Source: Kofleriaceae bacterium (GTDB lineage: Bacteria; Myxococcota_A; Polyangia; Haliangiales; Haliangiaceae). Taken from it: a stretch of 64,000 bases of DNA. Below the pieces are notes generated by a model. The model saw nothing but the letters and a program-made list of their open reading frames with translations. It did no database searches and had not been told where the DNA came from. The stretch spans positions 151,837 to 215,836 of the forward strand of contig JAWKQX010000006.1 in assembly GCA_041389925.1 (NCBI GenBank), read 5' to 3'. Every line of letters begins with the position of its first letter. Position 1 is the stretch's first letter. Position numbers and translations under genes: made by a program. Below, in pieces: positions 365 through 62,024 of the stretch.

Positions 365-620
365 CGGTGCGCATCGTACTCGCGCGTCGCCAGGGCGTCG
401 ACCTCCGGGCGGCGCCGCGCCGCGCGGCTCCAACGGGCCGCCCAAGCAAGGAGGTTGGCCTTCCGGCAGGGCCTCGCACCCGGGCGGGGCCGGTGCGGGG
501 AGATGTACGTCCGGGGTTCGCCGATGGACCGTGGGTGCCCTCACGGATTCGATAGGAAACCTCTCGCGGCGCTGGCCACGGCATGCCAGAGAGGGCAAGA
601 TCACCACGGTCCCACCAAGT

Positions 621-7072: not shown

Positions 7073-7280
7073 CGCCCCGTCGTACCGTCGGAACGCGGCG
7101 GGGTCAACCGCGCGCCGGCGGCAACGCTCGAGGGAGCGCGGTCCGTGGCGCGCGGTCGGCGGCGCGCGGTGCGCGTCGGCTCGGACGACGCGCTCGCACG
7201 AGGCCGGCGCGAGGATCTCCCAGCGGTCCAGGGCCACGCGGTCCCATGGCCGCGGCGGGATCCGCTATGGTGCCGATCCG

Positions 7281-10004: not shown

Positions 10005-10056
10005 GGCGAGCACGCCGGTCTCGGAGGCCGAGCGCGCCGCGTCGTTTTGCGGCGGC

Positions 10057-10611: not shown

Positions 10612-11156
10612 CGCGCCGCCGTCCCCGCGCGTCTGGAGCTCGCCTCGCGCGGTGTCCGCGACGCCCGCGGTTTTCCCGCGCGAGGTCGGCGTTCGATCGT
10701 CGCCTCCGGCGCGCGCGCCGGGACTCGCTCGCGGTTCCTCGGTGCGTGAACGAGGCAGGACCAGGGGGAGCTGAGCGCGGCCATCACTCGCTACATCGGC
10801 GGGCCGGTCGAGGCGTAAAGTCGGAGCGTCGCCGCGCGGCTGGAGCCGACGCTCGAAGCGAGGTCGCGACGCGGTAGCCGCTCGGCGTCTGGGTCCGCCA
10901 GGACCCTCGTGAGGCGCTTGCGTCGGGTGCAGCGCGACGCAGCGCGGCGCTCGTGGCGACCCACAAGGTGAGCGCTCGCGCGGCGAGGTTGCGGGATCTT
11001 GTGGGACTCCCAACCAATTGACTGGACGACGATGACGAGGCGCGTGCTGCGGCTGCCATCTCTGCACCCCTTTGTCCACCACGTCGTCCATCGCGATCCG
11101 TCGTCATCGGCGCCCGGCGGTTGTCGTCGCGTATCCTCGAACGTTAGCTTGCGCGA

Positions 11157-12582: not shown

Positions 12583-14097
<1,515 letters not shown>

Positions 14098-14108: not shown

Positions 14109-14327
14109 ATGAGCACCCCCATGCCGACCCTCGAACGTACCTTCTGGATCGTCGCCATCGTCGCCGTGCTGGTGTGCGCCTCGCTCACCATCCGGGCCGG
14201 AGCGGCGCTGCTCGAGACGGGCCTCCTCCGCGACTCGGCGAGCTCGCGGGCGCTCCCTTGGGGGAGCGCGCGGAGTGCGCCCGTCGACCTCCCCCAACCC
14301 TCGCCGCTGTCCACGCGCTGGTCGTAA
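14109..14327 (+). CDS. small membrane ORF paralogous to the GspC N-terminus (72 aa); possible duplication relic or pseudogene
   Basis: ERTFWIVAIVAVLVCAS...LLRDSASSRA aligns with GspC IKRYFWIVPVVAVMLCAF...VLGDSKTAPPARA. The DNA is also similar. ATG 14109 is 12 nt after the NtrC stop. Confidence 0.35.
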   Translation: MSTPMPTLERTFWIVAIVAVLVCASLTIRAGAALLETGLLRDSASSRALPWGSARSAPVDLPQPSPLSTRWS

Positions 14328-14343
14328 GACGCCGGAGCCCCGC

Positions 14344-15264
14344 ATGCAGGATCAAATCAAGCGCTACTTTTGGATCGTCCCCGTCGTCGCCGTGATGCTG
14401 TGCGCGTTCTACGCCGCCAAGGCGACCGCGCACATCGTGGAGGCGAAGGTCCTCGGCGACTCGAAGACGGCGCCGCCGGCGCGCGCGACCGTGCTCGCCG
14501 CGGCGGAGCCCCGCGTGGTGCGCCACAGCAAGGACGGCGTGCAGCTCACGCAGCGCAACATGTTCTGCTCCGGGTGCACGCCCGCCGTGGCGGTGGTCAC
14601 CGATCCCTCGCAGGTGCCGATGACGAGCCTGTCGCTGCTCCTGGTCGCGACCAACGTCAGCCAGGATCCGACGCTGTCGTTCGCCTCGGTGGTCAACGCC
14701 GACACCCAGGTCCAGGGCGGCTACCACGTCGGGGACAAGCTCCCCGGCGCCGGCCCGATCAAGGAGATCCACTACAAGTACATCGACTTCGAGAACAGCG
14801 GTCGCATCGAGCGCCTGGTGCTCGCCGGCCTGACCGAGCCGGTCATCGCGGCCGCGCCGGAGCCGCCGCCGGCGGTCGCCGCGATCGGCGACAGCAAGGA
14901 CGAGCTGCAGGCGGCGCTCGACAGCGGCATCCGCAAGCTGAGCGACACCAGCTTCGAGGTCGATCGCGCGCTGGTCGACAAGGCGCTCGCCAATCCCATG
15001 GCCATCGCCAAGGGCGCGCGCATCGTCCCCTCGGTGAAGGACGGCAAGCCGGATGGCTTCAAGCTGTACGCGATCCGGCAGAACTCCGTCTATTCCAAGC
15101 TGGGCTTGTCCAACGGCGACACGCTGCAGTCGATCAACGGGTACGGGCTCACCTCCGCGGAGGCGGCGCTCGAGGTCTACACCAAGCTGCGCGAGGCCAC
15201 CGCTCTGGAGGTCTCGGTGAGCCGCCGCGGCAAGCCCGTCACCCTCAAGTATTCGATCCGCTAG
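14344..15264 (+). CDS. gspC: type II secretion system protein GspC (TM anchor + C-terminal PDZ domain)
   Basis: Start MQDQIKRYFWIVPVVAVMLCAF (ATG 14344, GGAG 10 nt upstream). C-terminal PDZ-like IRQNSVYSKLGLSNGDTLQSINGYGLTSAE. First gene of the gsp cluster. Confidence 0.8.
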   Translation: MQDQIKRYFWIVPVVAVMLCAFYAAKATAHIVEAKVLGDSKTAPPARATVLAAAEPRVVRHSKDGVQLTQRNMFCSGCTPAVAVVTDPSQVPMTSLSLLLVATNVSQDPTLSFASVVNADTQVQGGYHVGDKLPGAGPIKEIHYKYIDFENSGRIERLVLAGLTEPVIAAAPEPPPAVAAIGDSKDELQAALDSGIRKLSDTSFEVDRALVDKALANPMAIAKGARIVPSVKDGKPDGFKLYAIRQNSVYSKLGLSNGDTLQSINGYGLTSAEAALEVYTKLREATALEVSVSRRGKPVTLKYSIR

Positions 15265-15290
15265 CTCGCTAGCCTGACCTACGAGAGCCC

Positions 15291-17732
15291 GTGAAAGTCA
15301 TGATGTCGAACCAACCCGCCCCGAATCCTCGCCTCGCTCGCTGCCGGCGCTTCTCCTCTGCGCTCGCGCTCGCGCTTGCGCTCGTGGCGTCGGCCGCGGT
15401 CGTCCGGCCCGCGCAGGCGCAGCCGGCGTCGACCGACGATCAGATGTACAACTGCAACACGAAGGCCAAGGGGCCGATGACGGTGACCCTCAAGGGCCCG
15501 GAGACCGAGCTGAAGGATCTCATCTCGTGGATGATGACCTTCAACTGCAAGAACTTCGTGTTCGAGCCGCGGATCATCTCGTCGGGCAAGAAGGTCACCA
15601 TCATGGCCCCGCTCAAGATGACGCCCCAGCAGGCCTACGACGTCTTCTTGGTGGCGCTCTCCACGATGGGCCTGACCGTCGTGCCCAAGGGCAACGTGAT
15701 GCGCATCATCGAGTCCGCCACCGCGCGCACCGAGACGCTGCCGCTGCGCCGCGGCTCGCCCGGCAACCGCGACGAGATGATCCGCTTCATCCTCCGGCCG
15801 TCCTACCTGAAGGTGGACGAGCTGCGCACGGCCTTGAGCACGATGCAGTCGCCCGCCGGGCAGGTCAACACGATCGGCTCGGTGCTGGTCATCACCGACT
15901 ACGCGAGCCAGGTGCGCGACATGGTCGCCCTCACCCGCGCGGTGGACGTCCCGGGCGGCAGCGACGGCATCTACACCATCGCGGTGCAGCACGCCGACGC
16001 CAAGGATCTGGCCTCCAAGATCAGCGAGATCCTCGGCATCACCCAGGGCGCGCCTCCCACCCCGCAGGCCGCGGGGCGCGCCGGCAACGCGGTGCAGACG
16101 AAGGACGTCGCCGCGGCGGTGCCCTCGAAGATCCTCGTCGATGAGCGCAGCAACTCGCTGCTGCTCGTGGCGAGCGAGGCGGCGTACCTGCGCGTGCGCG
16201 CGCTGGTGCAGCGGCTGGACGTCGAGCTCGACACCACCTCGGGGAGCTCGATCCACGTCTACCCGCTGGAGAACGCGATCGCGGAGGAGCTCGCCAACAC
16301 GATCAACGGCGCGCTGCAGGGGCAGTCGCAGCAGCCCAAGCCGGGCGGCGCGCCGCCGCGCGGGCCGGGCGGCCGCGTCGACATCGGCGCCACCATCGAG
16401 GGCCAGGCGCGCGTGTTCGGCGACAAGCCGACCAACTCGCTGGTGGTCATGTCGTCCGGGCGCGACTTCGTCGCCCTCAAGGAGGTGATCCGCAAGCTCG
16501 ACATCCCGCGCCGCCAGGTGTTCATCGAGGCGCTGATCCTGGAGGTCCAGCTCTCGGATCGCTTGAACCTCGGCACCAGCTCGCACGCCGGCGTCCCGGT
16601 GTTCGGCACGAGCCTCCTGCTCGGCGGCGTCCAGGTCGGGGCGGTGAGCTCGCTCAACCCGAGCTCGCTCGCCGCCGCCCAGGGCTTGATCGGCGGCCTG
16701 CTGGGCAAGCCGCTCACCAACCTCTCCAACTTCGGGCTCGGCGCCGCCGGCACCGTCGTGCCGTCGTACGGCCTGGTGGGGCAGGCGCTCCTGTCAAGCG
16801 CCAACACCGACCTGCTGTCCGCGCCGCACTTCATCGCCATCGACAACGAGAAGACCGAGTTCTCCGTCGGCCGCAACATCCCGTACAAGGCCGGCCTCAC
16901 GTTCGGCGGCCTGGGCCTGCCCACCGGGGGCGGCTCCGGCGGGATCGCCGGCTCGATCGGCCAGAACATCCAGCGCGAGAAGCTGAACCTCACCCTCAAC
17001 GTCACGCCGCACATCAGCGGTAACGACATGGTCCGCCTCGAGATCGACGGCGAGATCAAGGACCGCGGCGAGGACGAGCAGGATCTCGGGCCGACCTGGA
17101 CCGAGCGCAAGATCAAGACCCAGGTGGTGGTGCGCGATCAGCAGGCCGTCATCCTGGGCGGGCTCATCCAGGAGTCCTTGCTCTACAGCGAGGTCAAGGT
17201 CCCCATCCTCGGCGACATCCCGGTGCTGGGCTACCTCTTCAAGTCCACCCGGAAGGAGAAGCGCAAGAGCAACCTGCTCATCCTCCTCACCCCCTACGTC
17301 ATCAAGGACCAGCTCGAGCTCCAGCAGATCCGCGAGCGCAAGGAGCGCGAGCGCGCGGAGTACGTGCGCTCGTTCTCGAACCTCAGCGAGGCGCGGTTCC
17401 AGCCCAAGGTGAACTACGCGCGCAAGCGCGGCCTGCTCGAGGAGATCAACCGGACCCTGCAGAACGTCGATGACGACATCCTGGAGCTGCGCTCGCTGGG
17501 GCAGCAGGACCTGGTGCCCGACGGCCCCGTCAACTACACGGTGCCGAGCGACCTCGACGGCGGCGGCACCGGCGGCACCGCCGAGGCGGACGCGCCGAGC
17601 ACCGAGGGCGAGGCGGACGGCGCGGCGGCGACGGCCACCGTCGAGGTCAAGCCCGCCGCGGTGACCCTCAAGCCCGCCGCTAGCGTCAAGCCCGCCAAGG
17701 CCAAGTCCAGGGCGGCGAAGGTGAGCCCCTAG
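15291..17732 (+). CDS. gspD: type II secretion system secretin GspD
   Basis: Signal peptide. N0-N3 domains. Secretin core (VVVRDQQAVILGGLIQESLLYSEVKVPILGDIPVLGYLFKSTRKEKRKSNLLILLTPYVIKD). Low-complexity C-tail. Start GTG 15291 or ATG 15300. Confidence 0.9.
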   Translation: MKVMMSNQPAPNPRLARCRRFSSALALALALVASAAVVRPAQAQPASTDDQMYNCNTKAKGPMTVTLKGPETELKDLISWMMTFNCKNFVFEPRIISSGKKVTIMAPLKMTPQQAYDVFLVALSTMGLTVVPKGNVMRIIESATARTETLPLRRGSPGNRDEMIRFILRPSYLKVDELRTALSTMQSPAGQVNTIGSVLVITDYASQVRDMVALTRAVDVPGGSDGIYTIAVQHADAKDLASKISEILGITQGAPPTPQAAGRAGNAVQTKDVAAAVPSKILVDERSNSLLLVASEAAYLRVRALVQRLDVELDTTSGSSIHVYPLENAIAEELANTINGALQGQSQQPKPGGAPPRGPGGRVDIGATIEGQARVFGDKPTNSLVVMSSGRDFVALKEVIRKLDIPRRQVFIEALILEVQLSDRLNLGTSSHAGVPVFGTSLLLGGVQVGAVSSLNPSSLAAAQGLIGGLLGKPLTNLSNFGLGAAGTVVPSYGLVGQALLSSANTDLLSAPHFIAIDNEKTEFSVGRNIPYKAGLTFGGLGLPTGGGSGGIAGSIGQNIQREKLNLTLNVTPHISGNDMVRLEIDGEIKDRGEDEQDLGPTWTERKIKTQVVVRDQQAVILGGLIQESLLYSEVKVPILGDIPVLGYLFKSTRKEKRKSNLLILLTPYVIKDQLELQQIRERKERERAEYVRSFSNLSEARFQPKVNYARKRGLLEEINRTLQNVDDDILELRSLGQQDLVPDGPVNYTVPSDLDGGGTGGTAEADAPSTEGEADGAAATATVEVKPAAVTLKPAASVKPAKAKSRAAKVSP

Positions 17733-17734
17733 CG

Positions 17735-19566
<1,832 letters not shown>

Positions 19567-19567
<1 letters not shown>

Positions 19568-20820
19568 TGGCGCTCTACGAATGGAAAGGCGTCAACGCCA
19601 GCGGCAAGGCCGTCAGCGGCACGCGTGAGGCGGACTCGCCCAAGACGCTGCGCCAGGTGCTGCGCCGCGACGGCGTCGTGGTCACCGGCTTCGAGCTGTC
19701 CAAGGGCAACGCGAAGGCCAAGGAGGCCGCCGCCAAGTCGCGCGGCCTGTCCCGGCAGGTCGATCTCGGCGGCCTCTTCGGCGGGGTCAGCAAGGTCGAG
19801 ATCGCCAACTTCACCCGGCAGATGGCCACCCTGCTCAAGGCCGGCATCCCGCTCGCCGAGACGCTGTCGGCGCTGACCGAGCAGGTCACCAACCTGCGCT
19901 TCCGCACCTCGCTGAGCGAGGTGCGCGCCGCCGTCAACGAGGGCTCGAACCTCGCCGACGCGCTCGCCAAGCACCCCAAGCTCTTCGACGAGCTGTTCGT
20001 CTCCATGGTGCGCGCCGGCGAGGCCGCCGGCAACCTGGACGAGGTGCTCACCCGCCTCGCCGACTTCCTGGAGAGCGCGCAGAAGCTCAAGTCCAAGGTG
20101 CAGAGCGCGATGGTCTACCCGATCGTCATGCTCGTCGTCGGCATGATCATCATGGTCGTGCTGATGGCCAAGGTGGTGCCGCAGATCACCGAGATGTTCG
20201 TGACGCAGGGCAAGACCCTGCCGATCAACACGCGGATGCTCATCTGGAGCTCGAACTTCATCGGCGGCAACTTCCTCTGGCTCATCATCGGCACGGGGCT
20301 CGCGGTGTTCGGCTTCATGAAGTGGTCCGCGTCGAAGGACGGCAAGCCGATCTGGCATCGCGCCGTCCTCAACATGTGGGTCGTGGGGCCGCTGGCGCGC
20401 AGCCTCAACGTGGGCCGCTTCGCCCGCACCCTGGGCACCATGCTCAAGAGCGGCGTGCCGCTCCTGCGCGCGCTCGATATCGCCAAGCAGATCGTCGGCA
20501 ACGTCGTCATCCGCGAGGCCATCGAGAACTCCAAGAAGGCGGTCACCGAGGGCGAGTCGCTCGCCACCACGCTGCGCAAGAGCGGCCAGTTCCCGCCCAC
20601 CATGATCCACATGGTCGCGGTCGGCGAGCGCGCCGGCCAGCTCGAGGCTATGCTTGAGCGTGTCGCGGACACCTACGAGTCCGAGGTGGACATCAAGCTC
20701 GGCCGCATGGCGTCGCTGCTCGAGCCGCTGATGCTCGTGCTCATGGGCGGCGCGGTCGCCTTCATCGTCTTCTCCATCCTCCAACCCATCATGGACCTCG
20801 GCCAGCTCGGTGGCCGCTAG
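19567..20820 (+). CDS. gspF: type II secretion inner-membrane platform protein GspF
   Basis: Duplicated GspF/PilC domain architecture with 3 TM segments. ATG overlaps the gspE stop. Confidence 0.9.
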
Positions 20821-20836
20821 CTTGCAAGGAGCTCTC

Positions 20837-21274
20837 ATGCGCATGTCGAAGATCGCCCTATCCCCCCGACGCCTCAGGGCGTCCCGCAACGCCAAGCGTC
20901 GCCAGAAAGGCATGACGCTGCTGGAGATCATGATCGTGCTCGCCATCTTGGCGCTGATCATGGGCCTGGTGGTTGGGCCTCGCGTCATGAAGCTGTTCAG
21001 CAAGTCCAAGGAGGACATCGCCGCCGCGACCGTCCGCAAGTACGCCAGCGAGGCGTTCCCGCTGTGGGCGCAGGCCAACCCGGACAAGGCGTGCCCGCCC
21101 AACATCGAGGCGCTCAACGAGTACATGAACAACAAGGAGAACAAGGACACCTGGGGCCAGCCGTACCGCTTGCTCTGCGGTCCCACGTTGCCCGCCGGCG
21201 CCCAGGGCATCGGCATCGTGTCCAACGGCCCCGACCAAAAAGAGAACACCGCGGACGACATCAAGTCCTGGTAG
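20837..21274 (+). CDS. gspG: major pseudopilin GspG (prepilin with unusually long 25-aa leader)
   Basis: Prepilin signature RRQKG/MTLLEIMIVLAILALI. AAGGAG Shine-Dalgarno 5 nt upstream of ATG 20837. Leader MRMSKIALSPRRLRASRNAKRRQKG is longer than the typical 6-10 aa. Confidence 0.85.
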   Translation: MRMSKIALSPRRLRASRNAKRRQKGMTLLEIMIVLAILALIMGLVVGPRVMKLFSKSKEDIAAATVRKYASEAFPLWAQANPDKACPPNIEALNEYMNNKENKDTWGQPYRLLCGPTLPAGAQGIGIVSNGPDQKENTADDIKSW

Positions 21275-21277
21275 CCC

Positions 21278-22081
21278 ATGCCCCTTCGCCGCCTCCATCC
21301 TACGCGCCTGACCATCGCCGCCTCGCGGCGGCGGCAGCGCGGCATCACCCTGCTGGAGATCATGATCGTGCTCGCGATCATGGGCGCCTCGCTGGGGCTG
21401 GTGCGGAGCGGCTTTCGCATGGTCACCAAGGCGGATCTGGCGGAGAACGCGGTGGAGCTGGTCGCGATGCTGCGGCGCACCAACCAGCTCGCGATCGAGA
21501 CCGGCGAGATGCACCGGCTGGTCCTCGATCTCGACAAGCACGCCTACGCCATCGAGGTGTGCCAGGGCCAGGCCGCGATCAGCCGCAACGAGGCGGTCAA
21601 GGTCGAAGAGGACGTCAAGCAGCGCGCGATCCTGCGCATGCAGGGTCGGCTCGGCGGCGCCTCGCCGGAGGCGCTGTCGACCGATCCGGAGGACGCCACC
21701 AAGAAGGCGCTCGCGCTGGCCGGGCACCACGTGGCGGATCGCTCGTGTGAGCAGGCGGCCGCGGGCCTCACCGGCGACTCGCAGGGCCGCGGCTGGGCCC
21801 GCGAGCTGCGCAGCAACAAGGGCATCAAGTTCCGCGAGGTCTGGGTGCAGCACCAGGACAAGAGCAGCACCGACGGTCAGGTCGCCATCTACTTCTTCCC
21901 GATCGGCTCGGCGGAGAAGGCGGTGATCGAGCTGACCGACGGCACGGACGTGTTCTCGGTCCTGCTGTTCGGCCTGACCTCGCTGGTGCAGATCCACGAC
22001 GGCACGCTGCCGGACGTCGAGGACCACATGTTGCGCAACATCAAGGGTGACCGCGACAAGGTCCGGGAGTCCAACCGATGA
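21278..22081 (+). CDS. gspH: minor pseudopilin GspH-like
   Basis: Prepilin N-terminus RRQRG/ITLLEIMIVLAIMGA. Position in the cluster. The ATG overlaps the next gene as ATGA. Confidence 0.75.
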   Translation: MPLRRLHPTRLTIAASRRRQRGITLLEIMIVLAIMGASLGLVRSGFRMVTKADLAENAVELVAMLRRTNQLAIETGEMHRLVLDLDKHAYAIEVCQGQAAISRNEAVKVEEDVKQRAILRMQGRLGGASPEALSTDPEDATKKALALAGHHVADRSCEQAAAGLTGDSQGRGWARELRSNKGIKFREVWVQHQDKSSTDGQVAIYFFPIGSAEKAVIELTDGTDVFSVLLFGLTSLVQIHDGTLPDVEDHMLRNIKGDRDKVRESNR

Positions 22082-22857
22082 TCACCGTGTGCCGTCTTGC
22101 GCGACGATCCAGGCGCGGCCGCACCGCCGCCGGCTTCACGCTGGTGGAGGTGATGCTGGCGCTGGCCATCCTCGGGATGGCGCTGATGATGCTGATGCGC
22201 AGCGCCACCGGCAGCCTGTTTGCCACGTCGCAGGCGCAGATGCTCGGCGTGGTCACCGATCTCGCGCGCGGCAAGATGTACGATCTCGAGGAGAAGGTCA
22301 CCAAGGAGGGCTTCTCCGACAGCAAGCAGACCGAGCAGGGCACCTTCGAGGCGGAGGGCTGGGAGTCGGTGGAGTGGGAGGCGACGATCGAGCCGGTCGA
22401 GCTGCCCAACCTGTCGACGGTGCAAGAGGTGGGCAAGAGCGCGGCGGCGAACAACACCAAGCCGTCGCCCAACGGCTCGGGGAGCGGCTCGGACGTGCAG
22501 GCCGCGCAAGACGCCACGGGCGGCTTCATCGAGCAGTTCTACGGCGTGATCTCGCAGGTGCTCAAGGTCGCCATCCGCAAGACCACGCTGGTGGTGAAGT
22601 GGAAGGTGCTGGGGCGCGATCGCGATCTGAAGGTCATCACGTACTTCACCAAGCCGGCGGCGATGGTCAACGCGATCAACGAGATCACCGGCGCGCTCGG
22701 CGGTGGCGGTGGCGGTGGCGGCAGCGGCGGCAGCAGCGGCGGTGGTGGCGGCAGCAGCGGCGGCGGCGGCAGCAGCGGCGGTGGCGGTAGCAGCGGCGGT
22801 GGCGGCAGCAGCGGCGGTGGCGGTAGCAGCGGCGGCGGCCGAGGTGGCGGCTCGTGA
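22078..22857 (+). CDS. gspI: minor pseudopilin GspI-like with C-terminal (GGGGSS)n tail
   Basis: AAGFTLVEVMLALAILGMAL prepilin motif. The C-terminal about 55 aa are Gly/Ser repeats encoded by an 18-bp tandem DNA repeat. Confidence 0.75.
   Translation: MITVCRLARRSRRGRTAAGFTLVEVMLALAILGMALMMLMRSATGSLFATSQAQMLGVVTDLARGKMYDLEEKVTKEGFSDSKQTEQGTFEAEGWESVEWEATIEPVELPNLSTVQEVGKSAAANNTKPSPNGSGSGSDVQAAQDATGGFIEQFYGVISQVLKVAIRKTTLVVKWKVLGRDRDLKVITYFTKPAAMVNAINEITGALGGGGGGGGSGGSSGGGGGSSGGGGSSGGGGSSGGGGSSGGGGSSGGGRGGGS
22700..22854 (+). repeat. 18-bp tandem repeat (ggcggcagcagcggcggt-like) encoding the GGGGSS tail of GspI
   Basis: Read directly: repeated ggcggtggcggtagcagcggcggtggcggcagcagc units. Confidence 0.8.
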
Positions 22858-23558
22858 GCCCTCGACGTTCCTGCGCGCGCGCGCGCGGCATGACCCTCCT
22901 GGAGGTCATGATCGGCCTGGCCATCCTCGGCATGATGATGGCGCTCACCTGGTCGACCATCTCCAACAGCTCGCGCGCCAAGCGCAGCTCGGAGGCGATC
23001 GAGCAGCGCAACCACGAGATCCGCGTGGCGATGGGCCAGGTGGTCCACGACTTCGAGAGCGCCTACCTCTCGCTCAACGAGGACACCAACTCGCAGAACC
23101 GGCGCACGCTGTTCATCGGCAAGAGCGGCAACAAGGTGCCGGAGATGCGCTTCTCTACGCTCAACCACCGCGTCCTCACCGCGGACGCCAACGAGTCCGA
23201 GCAGACGCAGATCTCCTACGAGGCGATGCGGGATCGGCAGGACGGCGACAAGACCAACTGGATCCGCCGCGAGCAGCGCCGGCTGTCCAACGAGAACCCC
23301 GAGGACGAGCCCGCGGAGTACGACGTCCTGGTCCACGACATCGAAGAGGTGCAGTTCGAGTTCTGGGACTGGAACCGCGAAGAGTGGAAGGACCGCTGGG
23401 ACTCCACCGCCAGCGACGGCGAGCGCGGGCGCCTGCCGGAGCGGGTGCGCATCACGCTCAAGATCAAGACGCCCAAGGGCGAGATCTCCACCCGCACCAC
23501 GCAGGCGAGCTTGCTCATGCAGGACTCCTTGCAGTTCAACCCAGATCGGGGGCCCTGA
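22854..23558 (+). CDS. gspJ: minor pseudopilin GspJ-like
   Basis: ARARG/MTLLEVMIGLAILGMMMAL prepilin motif. GTG start overlaps the gspI stop (GTGA). Position in the cluster. Confidence 0.75.
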   Translation: MSPRRSCARARGMTLLEVMIGLAILGMMMALTWSTISNSSRAKRSSEAIEQRNHEIRVAMGQVVHDFESAYLSLNEDTNSQNRRTLFIGKSGNKVPEMRFSTLNHRVLTADANESEQTQISYEAMRDRQDGDKTNWIRREQRRLSNENPEDEPAEYDVLVHDIEEVQFEFWDWNREEWKDRWDSTASDGERGRLPERVRITLKIKTPKGEISTRTTQASLLMQDSLQFNPDRGP

Positions 23559-24859
23559 TGCGCCGCCTACGCGTCCAGCGACCTCGCCTGGTCCGCGGCA
23601 AGCTGTTCGCCAGCCGCGAGCGCGGCATCGCGCTGGTGATGGTGATGATCGCGATCTCGATCATCCTCGCCATCACCAACCAGTTCGGCACCAACGCCAA
23701 CATCGACATGATCGCCGCGGCCAACTACCGCGATCAGATGCGCGCGCACTTCCTGGCGCGCACCGCGCTCAACGTCTCCGAGCTCGTCATCCGCATGCAG
23801 GTCGAGCTGGAGAAGCAGTTCAAGGGCCTGGACCTCACCAGCTACGCGGACCAGTTCATGATGGCGTTCTGCGGCAACCGCGCCGAGATCAGCGAGGCGC
23901 TCGGCGTCCCGGTGGAGCGGCTCGACGGGCTCGGCGGCGACATCGGCAACTGCGGCCTCATCCCGGCGATCACCACGGACGACAGCAAGATCAACCTCAA
24001 CTGTGCGTACAGCTCGAACAACAAGACGTTCGAGAGCCTGCGCGATCGGCTGATGTCGCTCTTGTCGTTCTCCGCGTACGATCCGGTGTTCGACGAAGGC
24101 GACGCCGAGGCCTGGCGGCGCAACCGCGAGACCCAGGTGGCGGCCCTGCTCGACTACGTCGACAAGGACTCGCTGCGCATGCGCGACCGCGGCTCGACGG
24201 AGGACTACGGCTACGAGTCGCTCAAGGACAGCTACCGCGCCAAGCAGAACCTCCTGGACACGGTCGGCGAGTTGCGGCTGGTCCGCGGCGTCGACGACCG
24301 CTTCTGGACGCTGTTCGGCAAGGCGTTCACCGTCTACGGCGGGTGCAAGATCAACCTCCAGGCGGTCGACAACGTCGCGCTGCTCGCCTCGATCCTGCGC
24401 CAGGCCGCGGAGAACCCGACCGACCCCGTGCTGCAAGATCAGCAGAAGCTGTGGCTCCTGGCCACGGTGATCATCAAGGCGCAGGAGTTCGGCCAGACGT
24501 TCAAGGACTCCGACGAGTTCATCGACTTCGTCAAGGACCCGGCGGCCGCGTTCAGCCTGCCCGGCCAGAAGGGCGGGCCTCCGCCTCAGATCCCCGGCCT
24601 CCCGCCGGGAGTGAAGGTCGGCCTGGCGCTCAAGAAGAGCGAGCTCGATCCCATCGTCACCTTCGGCGCGCGCATCACCTATCGCGTCACCGCGTGGGGC
24701 GAGATCAACCGCGCCCAGGTCGATGACAAGGGCAACCCCATCTTCCCCCCGGTCCGCCGCACGATCACCGGCGTCTGGGACACGGGCAAGACCCCCCAGC
24801 ACGTGCGCAAGGAACGGGAGGCCGGCAAGGGCGCCTGGGTCTTCCTGAAGGAGGAGTAG
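23558..24859 (+). CDS. gspK: minor pseudopilin GspK
   Basis: Start MRRLRVQRPRLVRGKLFASRERG/IALVMVMIAISIILAI (ATG 23558, TGATG overlap with gspJ). Lies in the C-terminal frame of artefact ORF 22703..24859. Large periplasmic domain typical of GspK. Confidence 0.8.
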   Translation: MRRLRVQRPRLVRGKLFASRERGIALVMVMIAISIILAITNQFGTNANIDMIAAANYRDQMRAHFLARTALNVSELVIRMQVELEKQFKGLDLTSYADQFMMAFCGNRAEISEALGVPVERLDGLGGDIGNCGLIPAITTDDSKINLNCAYSSNNKTFESLRDRLMSLLSFSAYDPVFDEGDAEAWRRNRETQVAALLDYVDKDSLRMRDRGSTEDYGYESLKDSYRAKQNLLDTVGELRLVRGVDDRFWTLFGKAFTVYGGCKINLQAVDNVALLASILRQAAENPTDPVLQDQQKLWLLATVIIKAQEFGQTFKDSDEFIDFVKDPAAAFSLPGQKGGPPPQIPGLPPGVKVGLALKKSELDPIVTFGARITYRVTAWGEINRAQVDDKGNPIFPPVRRTITGVWDTGKTPQHVRKEREAGKGAWVFLKEE

Positions 24860-24861
24860 CC

Positions 24862-26508
24862 ATGAGTCGGAACTTCGTCGTCGATCTCGGAGCATGGAGC
24901 GTCAAAGTGGCGGTCGCGGTTCCGGGCTTGCGCGGCGGCACCATCACCCACGTCGTCGAGCGCCTCATCCCCCCGGGGGAGGACGCGGTGGGCCCGCGCG
25001 CGGTGGCCGTGCTCGACGACCTGGTCAAGGAGCTGAACCTCCACAACGACACGATGTACTTCGCCGTGCGCGGCGATCAGCTCTTCACGCAGATCCTGGA
25101 TCTGCCGTTCCGCAACCTGCGGCGCACCGAGCTGGAGAAGGCGGTCGGCGGCGAGCTCGAGGGCGTGATGCCCGTCGATCTCGAGGACATGGTCTTCGCG
25201 TTCGAGCCGATCGCGGACGTCGCCACCGCCGCGCCGGTCGGCGAGGCCGAGGGCGAGCCGGCGCGCGGCCGCGCCCCCGACGCCATCGAGGGCATGCGCG
25301 TCCTGACCTACGCGATGCGCACCGACCGCGCCGAGGAGCTCATCGCCGAGGGCCAGGAGGCGGGCCACGATCCGCGGGCGCTCTTCCCGGTCGCGGCTGG
25401 CGCGGCGCGCGTGCTGGAGCGGTCCGGCGTGAGCACGCAGCTCGCCGGCGCGCCGATCGCCGTCCTCGATCTGGGGCACGAGCGCACCGAGGTCGCGCTG
25501 GTGCGAGGCGCGCAGATGCTGTTCAGCCGTAACCTGGCGCGCGGCGGCAAGCAGCTCACCGAGGCGATCGCGCGCACCTGGAAGCTCTCCTTCTACGACG
25601 CCGAGCAGGTCAAGCACACCGACGGCTTCGTCGCGTCCGCGGCCGAGCCCGCCACCTCCGAGGTGTGGTCGCGGCTGCACGGCGTCACGTCGGTGGAGCT
25701 GATGCCGCTGGTCCGCGACCTGCGGCAGACCTTCGCGGGCGCGCGCGCCCGCACCGGCTGCACGCCGACGGCGCTGCTCCTGGTGGGCGGCGGCTCGCGG
25801 CTGCGCGGCCTGGCCTCGTTCCTCTCCGAGCAGCTCGGCCTGCCGGCGCGGACGCTCTCGGAGATGGAGCGCGCCGCGATGGTCGGGCCCAAGGTGCCGG
25901 ACCTGTCCTCCGTCGACAGCCTGGCGATGACGATCGGCCTGTTGCACGAGTCGCTCACCGGCCGGCCCGCGTTCAACCTCCGCCAGGGCGAGCTGGCGGT
26001 GAAGGTCGACCTGTCGTTCTTGCGCACCAAGCTGTGGGCGCTGGGCGCCGCCGCCGTCGCGGTGGCGACGTTCGCCGCCGGCAGCGCGTACGCCAACATG
26101 TATCGCCTGCGCAAGGCCGAGAAGGTCCTCCAGCAGCGGCTCGCCGATGAATCGACGCAGCACTTCGGCACCAAGAAGACGGCGGACGAGGTCCTGTCCG
26201 CGCCGGGCGCCACCGCGGGCCTGGCGATCTCTCCGATGCCCAAGATGTCGGCGTATGATCTCCTCCTGGACATCAGCGCGCAGGTCCCGGGCAAGGACAA
26301 GATCACGCTGGACATCCTCCGGCTCGACATCACGGACTCGAAGGTCGACCTGGAGGGGACGGCGAAGAAGGCCGAGGAGATCGACCTGTTCCAGGGGGAG
26401 CTGAAGAAGAAGATCACCTGCTTCGAAGAGGTCACCCGCGGGACGACGGAGAGCGCCGAGAACGACGTTCAGCACTTCAAGATCAACATCAAGTCGAAAT
26501 GCATGTGA
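24862..26508 (+). CDS. gspL: type II secretion protein GspL (cytoplasmic actin-like domain, one TM, periplasmic domain)
   Basis: AAGGAGGAG Shine-Dalgarno before ATG 24862. Cytoplasmic domain, then TM LWALGAAAVAVATFAAGSAYA, then a periplasmic region. Position between gspK and gspM. Confidence 0.8.
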   Translation: MSRNFVVDLGAWSVKVAVAVPGLRGGTITHVVERLIPPGEDAVGPRAVAVLDDLVKELNLHNDTMYFAVRGDQLFTQILDLPFRNLRRTELEKAVGGELEGVMPVDLEDMVFAFEPIADVATAAPVGEAEGEPARGRAPDAIEGMRVLTYAMRTDRAEELIAEGQEAGHDPRALFPVAAGAARVLERSGVSTQLAGAPIAVLDLGHERTEVALVRGAQMLFSRNLARGGKQLTEAIARTWKLSFYDAEQVKHTDGFVASAAEPATSEVWSRLHGVTSVELMPLVRDLRQTFAGARARTGCTPTALLLVGGGSRLRGLASFLSEQLGLPARTLSEMERAAMVGPKVPDLSSVDSLAMTIGLLHESLTGRPAFNLRQGELAVKVDLSFLRTKLWALGAAAVAVATFAAGSAYANMYRLRKAEKVLQQRLADESTQHFGTKKTADEVLSAPGATAGLAISPMPKMSAYDLLLDISAQVPGKDKITLDILRLDITDSKVDLEGTAKKAEEIDLFQGELKKKITCFEEVTRGTTESAENDVQHFKINIKSKCM

Positions 26509-26514
26509 GCCGCC

Positions 26515-27105
26515 ATGTCAACCTTCGCAGATAACGCCAGCGACTGGTGGGAACGCAAGAACCCGCGCGAGCGCATGCTCTTGATGTCCCTCGCCGTGGT
26601 CGTGCCGATCACGCTCGCGGTCTACCTGGGCTCGTACATCAGCGACGGGCTCGCGAAGATCGAGAAGAACAACGCCACTACCCGGCGGGCGCTGTCGACG
26701 CTCGCCGATCTGCGCGCGCGCGGGCCGGTGGATCAGCCCACCGATGATCTGCTCGCCGCGATGCCGACGGAGCCGATCGGCCTGGAGAGCTACCTATCCC
26801 GCGCCGCCGAGAAGGCGAAGATCAAGATCCCGCGGTTCAACCCGCGGACGCCGGTCACCAAGGGCGGCTTCGTCACCCAGTCGATGCAGATCGACCTCAA
26901 CGACGTCTCGCTCGAGCAGGCGCGCGCCTTCCTCGAGGCGGTGGAGAAGGACTCGAACTACGTGGCCGTCACCGCGCTCAACGCAAGCCGGAAGTTCGGC
27001 GTGCAGGAGCGGCTCAACTTCAAGCTCGAGATCTCGTCGTACGCCAAGGAGCCCCCCGCGGTGAAGGCCGAGGCCGAGGGCAGCGGCTCAGGCGGAGGGA
27101 GCTAG
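26515..27105 (+). CDS. gspM: type II secretion protein GspM
   Basis: Small bitopic protein (TM LLMSLAVVVPITLAVYLG) following gspL. Confidence 0.75.
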   Translation: MSTFADNASDWWERKNPRERMLLMSLAVVVPITLAVYLGSYISDGLAKIEKNNATTRRALSTLADLRARGPVDQPTDDLLAAMPTEPIGLESYLSRAAEKAKIKIPRFNPRTPVTKGGFVTQSMQIDLNDVSLEQARAFLEAVEKDSNYVAVTALNASRKFGVQERLNFKLEISSYAKEPPAVKAEAEGSGSGGGS

Positions 27106-27108
27106 TCC

Positions 27109-28371
27109 ATGAGGCTTCTCGGCATCACCATCGGCTCGCGTGGGATGGCGCTCCTGCGCGCGATCGGGTACGTCGCGCTCGCGCTGGGCTCGTTCGTCTT
27201 CGCGCTGCAGCTCACCTTCCCGTACGGGCGGGTCAAGGATCGCCTCGTCGAGGTCCTCTCCACGAAGTACGACGTGGTGATCGGCGGCGTGGAGCGCGGC
27301 CTCTTGCCCGGCAAGATGATCCTCAACAACGTCAGCTTGAAGACGCGGGTGACCGAGCCCAACCAGGTGCCGTCGCTCTTCTACGTGAAGCGGATCGCGA
27401 TCGACCTCGGCGTGCTCGCCCTGCTCAGCAAGAAGGCCGTCCTCGACATCGAGGCGACCATCGGCACCGGCACCCTCGAGGGGACCGCGAGCTTCTCCAA
27501 GGAGCGCGCGCAGCTCGCGTTTCACAGCGACTCGCTGCCCGGCATGAACCTGCCGTTCCGCGAGCTGGTCGGCCTGCCGGTGCTCGGCGAAGTGGCGTTC
27601 AACCTGGACTTCGACTTCCAGCTCGTCCGCAACACGGTGGACTGGACCAAGGCGCGCGGCGACCTGACGCTGGAGTGCCCGCGCGGCTGCACCGTCGGCG
27701 ACGGCAAGACCAAGATCCGCCCCGCGGTCACGCGGCCGAACCAGGCCGAGTTCGTCAAGGACGGCATCGAGTTCAACAAGCTCAAGCTCGACAAGTTCTT
27801 GATGAAGCTCGAGGTCAAGAAGGGCACCGCGAAGCTCACCAAGTGGGAGGTGCCGTCGAAGGACGGCGAGGTGCACGTGGACTTCGAGGCGGCCCTGGAC
27901 AAGGTGCTCAACAACTCGCAGGTCACCGGCTGCCTGCGCTTCAACGGCTCGAAGGACCTGGAGAAGCGCGACTACCGGACCTTCGCGCAGCTCCGCACGC
28001 TGGGCGCGCCGCTCGGCCCTGACAACCTGTTCCACATTCGCCTCACCGGCCCGCTGAGCAAGGTCCGGCGCCTGGCGCAGGTCTGTGGCCCGGCCGCGGC
28101 GGGCGCCAACAGCGGCTCCTCCGGCGGCGGGACCTTCACGCCATCGCCGGCCGCCCCCGAGCCGCTGGTGCCGCCTCCTTCGCCGCCGCCCGAGCCGACG
28201 CCGCCTCCGGCGATCCCTCCGCCGACGCCGCCGACGCCTGCCGCGACCCCCGCGGTGCCGGGGGCCCAGCCGGAGCCGCAGCCGGCCGACGCGACCGCAC
28301 AGCCGGCGAACGCGCCGGCGGATCCCGCCGCGGAGAACCCCGCGGCCGCCGCGCCGGCCGTCGCAGAGTAG
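27109..28371 (+). CDS. gspN: type II secretion protein GspN with Pro/Ala-rich C-terminal tail
   Basis: N-terminal TM, large periplasmic domain, last gene of the gsp cluster. About 90-aa PAPEPLVPPPSPPPEPTPPPAIPPPTPP tail. Confidence 0.7.
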   Translation: MRLLGITIGSRGMALLRAIGYVALALGSFVFALQLTFPYGRVKDRLVEVLSTKYDVVIGGVERGLLPGKMILNNVSLKTRVTEPNQVPSLFYVKRIAIDLGVLALLSKKAVLDIEATIGTGTLEGTASFSKERAQLAFHSDSLPGMNLPFRELVGLPVLGEVAFNLDFDFQLVRNTVDWTKARGDLTLECPRGCTVGDGKTKIRPAVTRPNQAEFVKDGIEFNKLKLDKFLMKLEVKKGTAKLTKWEVPSKDGEVHVDFEAALDKVLNNSQVTGCLRFNGSKDLEKRDYRTFAQLRTLGAPLGPDNLFHIRLTGPLSKVRRLAQVCGPAAAGANSGSSGGGTFTPSPAAPEPLVPPPSPPPEPTPPPAIPPPTPPTPAATPAVPGAQPEPQPADATAQPANAPADPAAENPAAAAPAVAE

Positions 28372-28476
28372 CGCCCCGGGTGGTCGGGCGTGGGAGCGTC
28401 AGCGGCCTCGGCGGTGTGATGGCGCCCGCTGCGCTGGCGGTGGTATCTTCGCCGCGGCGTTGCCGCACGGTCACTC

Positions 28477-29025
28477 ATGAAGGGCATCATCTTCAACCTG
28501 CTTGAGGAGTTCGTTCAGCGAGAGCTCGGCGCGGATGCCTGGGACGCGGTGCTCGCCAGCGCCGGCAGCGAGGGCGTATACACCTCGCTCGGCAACTATC
28601 CGGACGCGGAGCTGTCCGCGCTCGTGGGAGAGATCTCGGCGCGGCTCGGGCAGTCGGACGAGGATACCTTGCGCGCGTTCGGGGCCGCGGCGCTGCAGCG
28701 TCTGGCCGAGCGCTACCCGGTGTTCTTTCGGGGCCACCAGTCCATCCAGTCCTTCTTGCCCACGCTCAACGACGTCATCCACAAGGAGGTGCGGAAGATC
28801 TACGCGGGCGCGGAGGCGCCGGACTTCGGGTACGCGCACGCGTCCGAGGGGCACTTCGTCCTCACGTACAGCTCCGCGCGCGGCCTGTGCGCGCTGGCCG
28901 AGGGCTTCATCCATGGCGCCGCGGCCTTCTACGAGGAGGCGGCCGCGCTCCAGCAGCTCGAGTGCATGCACCGAGGGGACGCCCGCTGCGTCTTCGACAT
29001 CTCGTTTCGCAAGCGCGCGTCGTGA
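28477..29025 (+). CDS. hnoX: H-NOX (heme nitric oxide/oxygen-binding) sensor domain protein
   Basis: MKGIIFNLLEEFVQRELG N-terminus characteristic of stand-alone H-NOX. Candidate proximal His in DVIHKEV. YxSxR heme-propionate motif (YSSAR). 182 aa. Confidence 0.85.
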   Translation: MKGIIFNLLEEFVQRELGADAWDAVLASAGSEGVYTSLGNYPDAELSALVGEISARLGQSDEDTLRAFGAAALQRLAERYPVFFRGHQSIQSFLPTLNDVIHKEVRKIYAGAEAPDFGYAHASEGHFVLTYSSARGLCALAEGFIHGAAAFYEEAAALQQLECMHRGDARCVFDISFRKRAS

Positions 29026-29037
29026 AGTTGACCCCGC

Positions 29038-30342
29038 ATGACCCAGCCCGACGATCTCTCCGAACACCTGCTGCGCCGCCGCCTCGAGCGCGAGCGGCGA
29101 GGGCGCCTGGAGGCCGAGGCGATCGCCGAGCGCGCGCTGCGCGAGCTCTACGACAAGAACGAGGCGCTCATGCGCGAGATGTCGGAGCGCCAGGAGGTGG
29201 AGGCGCAGTTTCGCCAGTCGCAGAAGATGGAGGCGATGGGCGTGCTCGCCGGCGGCGTGGCGCACGACTTCAACAACCTGCTCACGGTCATCAACGGCTA
29301 CGCCGACGTGATCCTCACGCGCCTGCCGGCGGACAGCCCGCTCCAGGATCTGGTCCGCCACATCGCCGAGGCCGGGGAGCGCGCGGCGCTCCTGACGCAG
29401 CAGCTCCTCGTGTTCAGCCGCAAGCAGGTCCTCGAGCCCAAGGTGCTGAACCTCAACACGGTGGTCACGGGCGTGGCGAAGCTGCTCCGGCGCCTGATCG
29501 GTGAGCACATCCAGCTCGAGCTCGCGCTCGACGCGACGCTCCGGCCGATGCGCGGCGATCCCGGCCAGCTCGGGCAGGTGCTCCTCAACCTCGCGATCAA
29601 CGCGCGCGACGCGATGCCCGGCGGCGGCGTGCTGACCGTGAAGACGACCAACGTCGAGGTCGGGGATCTCCATCGCCACGGGCTCATCGAAGCGCGCCCC
29701 GCCAGGTACCTGCGGCTGGAGGTCTCCGACACGGGCCACGGGATGGACGAGGCGACGCGCGCGCGCGTCTTCGAGCCGTTCTTCACCACGAAGGATCCGG
29801 GCAAGGGTACGGGCCTGGGGCTCGCCACCGTCTACGGCGTCGTCAAGCAGAGCGAGGGGCACATCGCGGTCGCGAGCGCGCCGGGCTGGGGCGCGACGTT
29901 CCGGCTGTACTTCCCCAGCGTCGAGGCGGCGCCCGCGGAGGAGCCGATCAGCGAGACGCAGCGCGCGCTGACCGGCTCGGAGACGGTGCTGCTCGTCGAG
30001 GATGATCCGGCGGTGTGCGAGCTCGCCCGGTACACGTTGGAGGGCCAGGGCTACACCGTGCTGGAGGCGCGCGACGGCGACGAGGCGCTGCGCCTCGCCG
30101 AGCTGCACCCCGAGCGGATCGATCTGCTCGTGACCGACGTGGTGATGCCAGGCCTCGGCGGCCGCGCGGTGGCGGAGCGGCTGCGCGCGCGTCGCCGTGG
30201 CGTGAAGGTCCTTTATATGTCGGGCTACGCGGGCGACTTCGGCGCCGAGGCGCGCCGCGTGGAGGACGATCGCATGCTGCAAAAGCCGTTTGCGCCGCGG
30301 GACCTGTTACTGCGGGTCCGCGAAGCGCTTCGCTCTTCCTAG
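29038..30342 (+). CDS. hybrid histidine kinase (HisKA + HATPase_c + C-terminal receiver), H-NOX-associated kinase
   Basis: H-box [24 protein letters not shown] boxes. C-terminal receiver [15 protein letters not shown]...[13 protein letters not shown]. Starts 13 nt after the H-NOX stop. Confidence 0.88.
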
Positions 30343-30568
30343 GATGCAGAACCTCTCGGAGTCCGCGACCCGACCGGCGGGGGCGCCGTCGCGTGGTTCT
30401 GGAATATCTCATGGAATTCCATATCGTTGGATGCCTGCTCCGGGTGGAGCGCCGAGCCTCGGTGTCGCACCACTGGCGCCGCCGAGTGGGCTTCCCGGTA
30501 CGATCAAACGGCCGGAGAATCCTGCCAATCCGCCGCACGGCGACGTGGAAAAGAGGTAGGTTGCGGCC

Positions 30569-31408
30569 ATGGATTCGATGCTTGGCATGCTCGGGGGTTC
30601 CGCTGGCGCCGCGACGGCACTGATCCCGGCGTTTGCGTTGCTTGGCTACTTCTACATTCTGCTGGATCGTCGACGGGACGACAGCATCAGCAAGGGAGAC
30701 GGCCAGGTCGGCGCCAAGCTGGTGCTGTGCGGCTTCATCCTGTTCGGCCTGATGACGGCCGCGGGCGGGGCCATCCAGCTCCTCGCGTTCATCCTCGGCG
30801 GCTTCAAGAACACCGGGGAGCTCAAGGCCGCGTTCGCCGGCATCGTCGGCGGCGGCGTGATCGGCGGCGCGGCGTTCGCGCTCGGGCTGCGCCGGACCAA
30901 CAACGACAAGCACGCGCAGGTCGCGCGCTTCGCCGCCGGCGTCGTCAGCCTGGGAGCGGGCCTCGCGGCCTCCGCCTCGTTTGTCGCGCTGCTCAACGCG
31001 CTGTTCCTCGGCGGCGGCTGGGACGGCATCCGCGGCACGCTCTCGCCGCTGGTCGTCTACGGCGCCCTCGCGTTCGTGTCGCTATCGATGCACGGCAAGA
31101 TGTCGGGCATCGTCTCCGCGATGCCGGCGCCGCAGCCGGCGGCCGGGTACGGCCAGGCAGGCTACGGCCAGCAGGGCTACGGTCAGCAGGCGGGCTACGG
31201 CCAGCAGGGCTATGGCCAGCAGGGTCAGGCGCAGGCGGGCTACGGTCAGCAGTCGCAACCGCAGGCGGGCTACGGCCAGCAGCCGCAGGGCTACGGCCAG
31301 GCGCAGCCCCAGGCCGGGTACGGCCAGCAGGGCTACCCGCAGGGCGGCCAAGGTGGCGGCTACCCGGGCGGCGGTCAGGGCGGCCAGGGCGGCTACGGCC
31401 AGCGCTGA
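30569..31408 (+). CDS. polytopic membrane protein with C-terminal (GYGQQ)n low-complexity tail
   Basis: AAGAGGTAGG Shine-Dalgarno before ATG 30569. 5-6 hydrophobic helices. The C-terminal about 85 aa are [11 protein letters not shown] repeats (about 15-bp DNA repeat, 31141-31405). Confidence 0.7.
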
Positions 31409-61871: not shown

Positions 61872-62024
61872 GGGGCTCCTGTGCGGATGATGCGAGGCCA
61901 AGGCCAGCGCGTCTGGACTCGCCGCAGCTTCGCACCGGCGCGCGGCCCACGTCCCGCGCATTTGCTGGCAATCGCGCGCGCGGCGTCTCGCCTGCTGTCG
62001 CAGGGGAGGACGCGGCGCACGCGA

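Follow-up and report, generated by a model that had tools for sequence, protein, structure and literature searches.

A Caulobacter-like H-NOX/hybrid histidine kinase module in a Kofleriaceae bacterium and a conserved opening helix in H-NOX partner proteins

Positions 28,477 to 30,342 of a 64,000-nucleotide stretch of DNA from a Kofleriaceae bacterium (GenBank assembly GCA_041389925.1, contig JAWKQX010000006.1, positions 151,837 to 215,836; the whole stretch is called the window below) encode an H-NOX haem sensor and, directly behind it, a hybrid histidine kinase. We find that this locus is a genuine hnoX–hybrid kinase module, cytoplasmic, whose nearest likeness is the Caulobacter H-NOX/HnoK pair, and that the kinase opens with a helix that recurs in H-NOX partner proteins. 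Modules of H-NOX and kinase are already well known and the gene pair as such is ordinary; the helix, a concrete and mutable target for working out how the H-NOX signal is transmitted, is the most interesting by-product of the analysis. The explanation that we favor, with a probability of about 0.7, is a Caulobacter-like module that would signal through this helix and whose adjacency to a type II secretion system (T2SS) operon is incidental.

Results

The gene pair and its H-NOX protein

Both open reading frames (ORFs) of the two-gene sensor locus begin with ATG and sit at the positions given by an earlier note made from the sequence alone. The first, hnoX (28477..29025, + strand), encodes a 182-residue stand-alone H-NOX that starts MKGIIFNLLEEF and is identical to an NCBI protein named 'heme NO-binding domain-containing protein [Kofleriaceae bacterium]'. 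The second (29038..30342, + strand) encodes a kinase of 434 residues. The earlier note was right that the kinase lies close behind hnoX, although the spacer that it gave as 13 nt counts 12 nt (29026-29037), a trivial difference, and right also that hnoX starts 105 nt after the end of gspN. The G+C content at third codon positions (GC3) is 0.91 for hnoX and 0.94 for the kinase gene, which is the bias of real genes in this window of 71% G+C.

The identification of the first product as an H-NOX, for which the note had proposed a search with the profile hidden Markov model (HMM) PF07700, is confirmed. Pfam HNOB (PF07700) matches with 134.1 bits against a cutoff of 25.5 (E 5.6e-39), aligning residues 2-157 with profile positions 1-160 of 163, and a V4R-like C-terminus is matched as well. 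The best PDB sequence match is the Shewanella oneidensis (So) H-NOX (4u99/2kii, E 1e-26). With 64 homologues as input, AlphaFold2 gave a model (pLDDT 86, pTM 0.82) that matches So 4u99 in Foldseek with a TM score of 0.88 (E 3.7e-15), and the β1 chain of soluble guanylate cyclase (sGC) is also among its matches.

The proximal histidine and the YxSxR motif, the absence of which the note had named as grounds for doubting the domain, were both found on alignment. The proximal haem ligand is predicted to be His102 (codon 28780..28782, + strand), which is invariant in 64 homologues and corresponds on alignment to So His103 and to His102 of Tt H-NOX. The haem-propionate motif YxSxR is present as Y131-S-S133-A-R135 (28867..28881, + strand); it is invariant in our alignment A1, and in alignment A4 S133 and R135 never vary, with Y131 kept in at least 90% of the sequences. 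Pro115, the conserved haem-distorting proline, is present and is conserved across the clade. A check of the distal pocket, also proposed in the note, found residues of the non-O2 type: on alignment, W9, N74 and Y140 of Tt H-NOX become L9, A72 and L140. The distal Tyr is the literature criterion that parts O2 binders from H-NOX proteins of the nitric oxide (NO) type (PMC12329717) and, because the distal Tyr/Trp/Asn network is replaced by apolar residues, the window H-NOX is predicted to belong with the H-NOX proteins that do not bind O2.

A predicted zinc site (28888..28989, + strand) comprises Cys138 (28888-90), Gln160 (28954-56), Cys163 (28963-65) and Cys171 (28987-89). On alignment these residues match the So zinc ligands Cys139, His161, Cys164 and Cys172, as given in PMC7108781. 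The three cysteines of the motif are invariant in 64 homologues, and every homologue of alignment A1 has Gln or His at position 160.

Clade and activating signal

The window H-NOX is 48% identical to that of Caulobacter crescentus (Cc), 36% to that of Vibrio cholerae (Vc), 33% to that of S. oneidensis, 32% and 30% to H-NOX1 and H-NOX2 of Legionella pneumophila (Lp), and 25% to those of both Nostoc and Tt, all of these values being approximate because the characterised sequences were transcribed from optically recognised text of the supplement to PMC12329717. At 47-54% identity, the nearest homologues in genomes are spread over very many phyla, with members in Mycobacteriales, Pseudomonas, Bradyrhizobium, Massilia, Acidobacteriota, Rhodothermales, Nitrospiraceae and Myxococcota. 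Group 3 in the H-NOX classification of Yukl and co-workers holds Mycobacterium, Caulobacter and Pseudomonas sequences (PMC7108781). Since the window protein is 48% identical to Cc H-NOX versus 32-36% to the So, Vc and Lp H-NOX1 proteins, and since its near hits include Mycobacteriales and Pseudomonas, it is assigned to the Caulobacter-like zinc-site group 3 and not to group 2, a placement made from identities and nearest genome hits rather than from a formal sequence-similarity network.

This placement bears on the signal. Cc H-NOX, the sole characterised member of group 3, adjoins a hybrid of kinase and receiver (REC) domain; its Fe(II)-NO complex is 5-coordinate and normal but leaves the kinase uninhibited, and inhibition comes instead with oxidation of the zinc-site cysteines (PMC12329717). 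The earlier note had read the window locus as an NO-responsive hnoX-hnoK system. The architecture stands, an H-NOX followed by a sensor-less hybrid kinase as in hnoX-hnoK and hqsK loci, but in a Caulobacter-like clade NO is not thereby established as the signal. Because the only characterised clade member switches on cysteine oxidation and not on NO, the label 'NO-responsive' does not appear safe for this clade and, for the window module, is plausible but unproven. The activating signal would be NO at the haem, oxidation of the zinc thiolates, or both.

The hybrid kinase

The kinase has no transmembrane segment and no sensor domain. Only HisKA (residues 70-130), HATPase_c (173-294) and Response_reg (317-427) are matched in Pfam, in agreement with the HisKA-HATPase-receiver layout described in the earlier note. 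Its core is of the CckA-like hybrid type, a very common one, with the best NCBIfam hits all far below the curated equivalog cutoffs. Membership of the NCBIfam family T2SS_HK was considered and rejected, the match reaching 94.7 bits against a cutoff of 450 and covering the catalytic and ATP-binding (CA) domain only. Relatives carrying PAS or GAF domains number in the thousands, and orthologues at 65-73% identity have the same layout of ~440 residues.

The predicted phospho-acceptor His76 (codon 29263..29265, + strand) lies inside the HisKA match, in the H-box AHDFNN, and is invariant in alignment A3 (32 sequences), as are the N, G1, F and G2 boxes. The C-terminal receiver domain (29986..30318, + strand; Response_reg E 2.1e-19) carries the predicted phospho-acceptor Asp367 (30136-30138, + strand), which is invariant in A3 together with E321, D322 and K416; S395 is kept in at least 90% of the sequences. 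In the AlphaFold2 model of the kinase (pLDDT 77), residues 1-69 are modelled as one helix and residues 5-95 form a single unbroken helix that includes His76. We predict that this protein is the H-NOX-regulated partner, a HnoK/HqsK-like kinase with a CckA-like core.

A conserved N-terminal helix in H-NOX partners

Nearly all genes located directly downstream of H-NOX in the loci that we fetched open with the same helix sequence, with the pattern R-x2-RER-x-AR-x-EAE-x-(I/L)(A/L)E-x3-R-x-LY. In the window kinase it covers residues 10-41 (~32 residues; 29065..29160, + strand), inside the long helix of the AlphaFold2 model. Among 75 partners of differing architecture, R18, R23, E27 and L37 are conserved in 100%, E31, E19, R15 and R35 in 92-98%, and Ala22, Ala26 and Ala30 in 86-89%. 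By Pfam, 68 of these 75 partners contain GAF_2, 42 GGDEF, 40 EAL, 29 HATPase_c, 16 REC, 5 Hpt, 2 HD-GYP and 1 SpoIIE.

The motif is confined to this position. Of 87 loci, 86 show a match to a 32-residue motif HMM at 20-90 nt behind H-NOX, 11 loci not used in building the HMM included, and there is no match elsewhere in 1.37 Mb of six-frame translated sequence; the window kinase scores 48.4 bits. The helix stands at the start of the gene after H-NOX in loci L001-L086 and L099-L111, which represent many phyla. Where H-NOX loci are more distant and plasmid-borne, the partner opens with a looser version, as in Pseudoalteromonas (YKRAFERERRARDELEGLLEAQTRRLYEAN), Vibrio coralliilyticus (YQRAYERERLARTEAERLLADKTRDLYDN) and Legionella (FERSYYRERKAREEAELLLENKTRELH), and also in Persicobacter, Pseudooceanicola and a Comamonadaceae bacterium. 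The test also works in reverse. When 1.84 billion representatives were searched exhaustively by phmmer with the 48-residue N-terminus of the kinase, only 20 significant hits came back, the query being too short, and all of them are at protein N-termini; three proteins found through the motif alone were then examined, and each is immediately preceded by an H-NOX gene. A word-index homologue search with its 62-residue N-terminus gave no match. The helix is absent from Pfam, NCBIfam and the PDB, where a sequence search gave no meaningful match, and a motif string search of the searchable literature found no description of it.

One locus within the second of these ranges, L105 (4001-5658), is archaeal and comes from a plasmid of Natrinema salinisoli. 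It has a stand-alone H-NOX, 28% identical to that of the window, followed, in the place of a kinase or cyclic di-GMP (c-di-GMP) enzyme, by a gene of the pyridoxamine-5'-phosphate-oxidase family that lacks the partner helix.

Judging from the way in which it runs straight into the phospho-accepting helix, the partner helix probably receives the H-NOX signal and, in the window kinase, which is without the usual GAF domain, it would act directly on the dimerization and histidine phosphotransfer (DHp) domain. Whether it is, more generally, a portable 'H-NOX receiver', a docking and transduction site shared by kinase, GAF-GGDEF-EAL, HD-GYP and SpoIIE outputs, with its looser forms in Vibrio, Legionella and Bacteroidota, we regard as a tentative proposal whose chances fall a little short of even. 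The window kinase, in which the helix is fused straight to the DHp helix, may be the minimal form of such a receiver system.

Gene order in relatives and the T2SS neighborhood

Upstream of hnoX lies a complete T2SS operon of the delta type, consisting of gspC-D-E-F-G, pseudopilins and K-L-M-N (14275..28371, + strand). Its products match T2SSC, Secretin, T2SSE, T2SSF, T2SSG, N_methyl, T2SSK, PilM_2 and T2SSM in Pfam, and NCBIfam GspC_delta scores 319.6 bits against a cutoff of 150. The last gene, gspN (27109-28371, + strand), is identified by TIGR04411 GspN (GspN_Lepto) with 97 bits against a cutoff of 50. Residues ~340-420 of GspN form a Pro/Ala-rich, low-complexity C-terminal tail of ~80 residues, and in related loci the tblastn matches to this GspN extend over little of the tail or none.

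The 105-nt spacer between gspN and hnoX (28372..28476, + strand) is unremarkable in its RNA fold (z +0.75), and a scan of 27800-31000 found neither a terminator nor a sigma-70 promoter on the + strand. The sigma-54 pattern TGGCAC-N5-TTGC, with two mismatches or fewer allowed, occurs neither in this spacer nor upstream of gspC, and across the window it is not enriched (43 matches, 58 expected). This pattern search of the window gives no evidence for a sigma-54 link.

The earlier note had suggested, from the placement of hnoX after gspN, that NO might co-regulate secretion or biofilm behavior. Gene order in relatives does not bear this out. T2SS genes lie within 10 kb in 0 of 86 related H-NOX loci, and neither H-NOX nor the kinase lies downstream of gspL-M-N in any of 9 related loci (25-45% identity). 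Among H-NOX homologues, the closest (60-64% identity) are preceded by a bpMoxR/bpX5/bpX6 system, by HipA or by other genes; in L001, L003, L005, L097 and L098 a bpMoxR-bpX5-bpX6 cluster (a MoxR-type ternary system) is seen upstream together with a HipA/HTH toxin-antitoxin pair.

The loci of the closest kinase relatives are informative. The closest orthologue (73% identity) is in L096, where the preceding T2SS operon shares 75-92% identity with that of the window. There (7541-11311), gspN is followed by a gene for a 243-residue S-adenosylmethionine (SAM) methyltransferase, a 379-nt gap and then the kinase, with no remnant of H-NOX between methyltransferase and kinase (best E 1.5); this kinase retains the partner helix, with Gln in place of Tyr38. 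The next relatives (67%), in L097 and L098, share the downstream genes of the window (a 279-residue protein, a 650-residue protein and a Fer4/Pyr_redox protein) and have the bpMoxR system upstream. In both loci (9801-10001 in each) the gene directly upstream of the orthologous kinase encodes a 66-residue 'mini-H-NOX', in which residues 1-35 are fused in frame to residues 148-182 and His102 and YxSxR are missing. This kinase is on record from five contigs, and two of them were inspected. The mini-H-NOX gene may be a pseudogene, or its product may be a remnant without haem in which helix alpha-A and two of the zinc cysteines are retained.

The hypothetical protein of 279 residues (30569..31408, + strand) has a Gly/Gln/Tyr-rich C-terminal repeat tail (GYGQQ...) and matches no Pfam or NCBIfam family; in L004, L097 and L098 the kinase gene is likewise followed by a homologue of it (61-63% identity). 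Because relatives keep the kinase and the downstream genes without T2SS adjacency, the comparison indicates that the stable unit is the kinase, with or without H-NOX, plus its downstream genes, and that the T2SS junction is a recent, lineage-specific gene order.

The T2SS, moreover, appears to have regulators of its own. A HAMP-HisKA-HATPase kinase (6831-10004, + strand), whose best NCBIfam hit is NF038348 T2SS_HK at 198.5 bits, below the cutoff of 450 but better than the score of the window hybrid kinase, and an AtoC/NtrC-like sigma-54-dependent response regulator (12583-14097, + strand) are encoded upstream of the operon, with a FAD monooxygenase (11157-12410) between them; this kinase and the response regulator are likely dedicated T2SS regulators. 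Nothing positively supports co-regulation of the module with the T2SS, and the secretion link is weak.

Other features of the window

A fusion protein of cytochrome c and cytochrome P460 is encoded at 61023-62024 (- strand), 31 kb from hnoX. P460 proteins handle hydroxylamine and NO chemistry, and the fusion is a possible link to nitrogen-oxide metabolism. An IS4/Tn5-like transposase (Tnp_DNA_bind and DDE_Tnp_1; 48430-49857) lies in a poor-coding stretch at ~48.1-51.5 kb. At one end of the window two long ORFs overlap on opposite strands, one encoding a PilZ-domain protein and the other a Zn-ribbon/TPR protein (5-1420, - strand, and 228-3314, + strand), and both have a gene-like GC3.

Discussion

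In the explanation that we favor, the sensor is a stand-alone H-NOX with an intact haem pocket (His102, Pro115 and YxSxR), an apolar distal pocket and a 3Cys+Gln motif. It would dock on, or signal through, the N-terminal helix of the kinase, which is modelled as continuous with the first DHp helix carrying His76. In the H-NOX/kinase pairs of Vibrio, Shewanella and Caulobacter, activated H-NOX inhibits the kinase (PMC12329717); here, likewise, activated H-NOX would inhibit autophosphorylation and so lower the flow of phosphate from His76 to Asp367 and on to an Hpt and a response regulator. The trigger could be NO at the haem, zinc-thiolate oxidation or both, oxidation being what the closest characterised relative uses, and the position after gspN would reflect gene order with no conserved functional link.

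The alternatives differ from this explanation mainly in the signal and in the meaning of the neighborhood. The module could be a pure redox sensor, in which oxidation of the zinc site at Cys138/Cys163/Cys171 makes the kinase-inhibiting form and the haem is structural or irrelevant to the switch. Kofleriaceae are myxobacteria, mostly aerobic like Caulobacter, which speaks for such a sensor, as do the identity to Cc H-NOX, the highest to any characterised protein, and a 3Cys+Gln motif whose cysteines are invariant in the clade; the partner, too, is a kinase-REC hybrid as in Caulobacter (PMC12329717). The strict conservation of His102, Pro115 and YxSxR, however, argues that haem chemistry is under selection, in Vc H-NOX either signal brings a response (PMC7108781), and the precedent is a single one whose authors note that NaOCl also alters the haem (PMC12329717), so that we consider a purely redox switch unlikely, if still a serious contender. 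Less probable again is an NO-selective hnoX-hnoK system of the canonical kind, with the kinase inhibited by H-NOX once NO is bound and the pair tied to the adjacent T2SS or to biofilm behavior. The distal pocket is of the NO type, kinases of Shewanella and Vibrio are inhibited by H-NOX that has bound NO (PMC12329717), the genes share a strand across a 105-nt gap with no predicted terminator after gspN, and in the close relative L096, too, the kinase gene follows this T2SS. But L096 has no H-NOX and has a methyltransferase in between, the adjacency is missing from the 86 H-NOX and 9 gspL-M-N loci, the T2SS has candidate regulators of its own upstream (a kinase and a sigma-54 response regulator), Cc H-NOX does not inhibit its kinase in the NO form (PMC12329717), and the window ORFs that we scanned include no c-di-GMP enzyme and no HnoB/C/D-like regulator.

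That the module is a decaying or orphaned remnant with no present signalling role is quite improbable. The loss of H-NOX in L096 and its reduction to a 66-residue fusion in L097 and L098 lend the idea some substance; both window genes, however, are full length with all catalytic and ligand residues intact, their GC3 is typical of window genes and the 12-nt spacing is kept. An O2-sensing H-NOX like the Tt protein of obligate anaerobes shares the fold with the window protein and no more than that, and it was rejected on the distal-pocket residues, Tyr140, Trp9 and Asn74 having given way to Leu140, Leu9 and Ala72; the window protein is, in addition, not fused to a methyl-accepting chemotaxis protein and is only 25% identical to Tt H-NOX, which leaves this alternative with hardly any probability at all.

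Several observations weigh against the helix-signalling, Caulobacter-like module that we prefer. Binding of haem, zinc and NO by the window H-NOX and inhibition of the kinase are predicted from homology, and the role of the helix in signalling is read from co-occurrence and a model of the monomer only. Published hydrogen-deuterium exchange mass spectrometry, as cited in PMC7108781, maps the contact surface of H-NOX to helices alpha-A to alpha-C and alpha-F. Read-through from the T2SS into hnoX is possible given that no terminator follows gspN. Because H-NOX has been lost (L096) or internally deleted (L097 and L098) while kinase and helix persist, the kinase may also work without H-NOX. The earlier note had proposed a search for c-di-GMP enzymes or an HnoB/HnoD-like regulator, and among the window ORFs scanned we found no Hpt, GGDEF, EAL, HD-GYP, orphan receiver or HnoB/C/D-like regulator; the Hpt and response-regulator partners of such kinases are often unlinked.

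The locus extends the Caulobacter-type (zinc-site, group 3) system of H-NOX and hybrid kinase to Myxococcota. It also carries a caution, in that an H-NOX without the distal Tyr is not automatically an NO sensor: the only tested member of this clade answers thiol oxidation. Tracking the partner gene across ~100 loci exposed a helix common to all H-NOX effector classes. If this helix is indeed a portable receiver, H-NOX targets could be predicted from sequence, the long-unsolved regulation of bacterial H-NOX partners would gain a defined interface, and the loss of H-NOX and the 'mini-H-NOX' of sister lineages would be natural experiments on that interface.

Of the known systems, H-NOX (CC2992) and HnoK (CC2993) of Caulobacter crescentus are the closest (PMC12329717, PMC10746521). 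The two H-NOX proteins are of the same clade, at 48% identity, with a motif of three Cys and His/Gln and no distal Tyr; each adjoins a kinase with a C-terminal receiver, and the host is of a non-denitrifying, aerobic type. Cc HnoK is much larger (69 kDa, with receiver Asp543) than the window kinase with its 434 residues and Asp367, and the latter has no domain of any kind between the N-terminal helix and the DHp domain. The fourth zinc position is His in Cc H-NOX and Gln in the window protein.

The H-NOX-HqsK systems of Vibrio harveyi and V. parahaemolyticus, in which a hybrid kinase feeds LuxU, likewise place a stand-alone H-NOX beside a kinase-REC hybrid, and there NO-bound H-NOX inhibits HqsK autophosphorylation (PMC12329717). 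The V. harveyi-type H-NOX belongs to group 4, with another Cys pattern (PMC7108781), and the window offers no quorum-sensing context and, among the ORFs scanned, no LuxU-like Hpt. The HnoX-HnoK-HnoB/C/D c-di-GMP networks of S. oneidensis and V. cholerae resemble the window locus in having hnoX followed by a sensor-less kinase, in the positions of the zinc site and in the fold, So 4u99 being the closest solved structure. HnoK-type kinases beside H-NOX in Pseudoalteromonas and Vibrio coralliilyticus carry a divergent form of the same helix. At 33-36% the H-NOX identities are lower than to Cc H-NOX, no REC-EAL or REC-HD-GYP regulator is present among the window ORFs scanned, and the HnoK proteins of S. 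oneidensis and V. cholerae are not known to be hybrids.

In the H-NOX/HaCE systems of Shewanella woodyi and Legionella pneumophila, H-NOX directly regulates GGDEF-EAL enzymes. Most partners in the clade are of this kind, usually with the enzyme domains after a GAF domain, and they share the same opening helix, whereas the output in the window is a phosphorelay kinase that lacks the GAF domain found in 68 of 75 partners. Unlike the window proteins, which are separate and would have to make contact, sGC β1 has its domains joined covalently and a PAS domain between them; what the two would have in common is the H-NOX fold and an H-NOX that acts on a long helix, the coiled-coil signalling helix in sGC, leading to the catalytic module.

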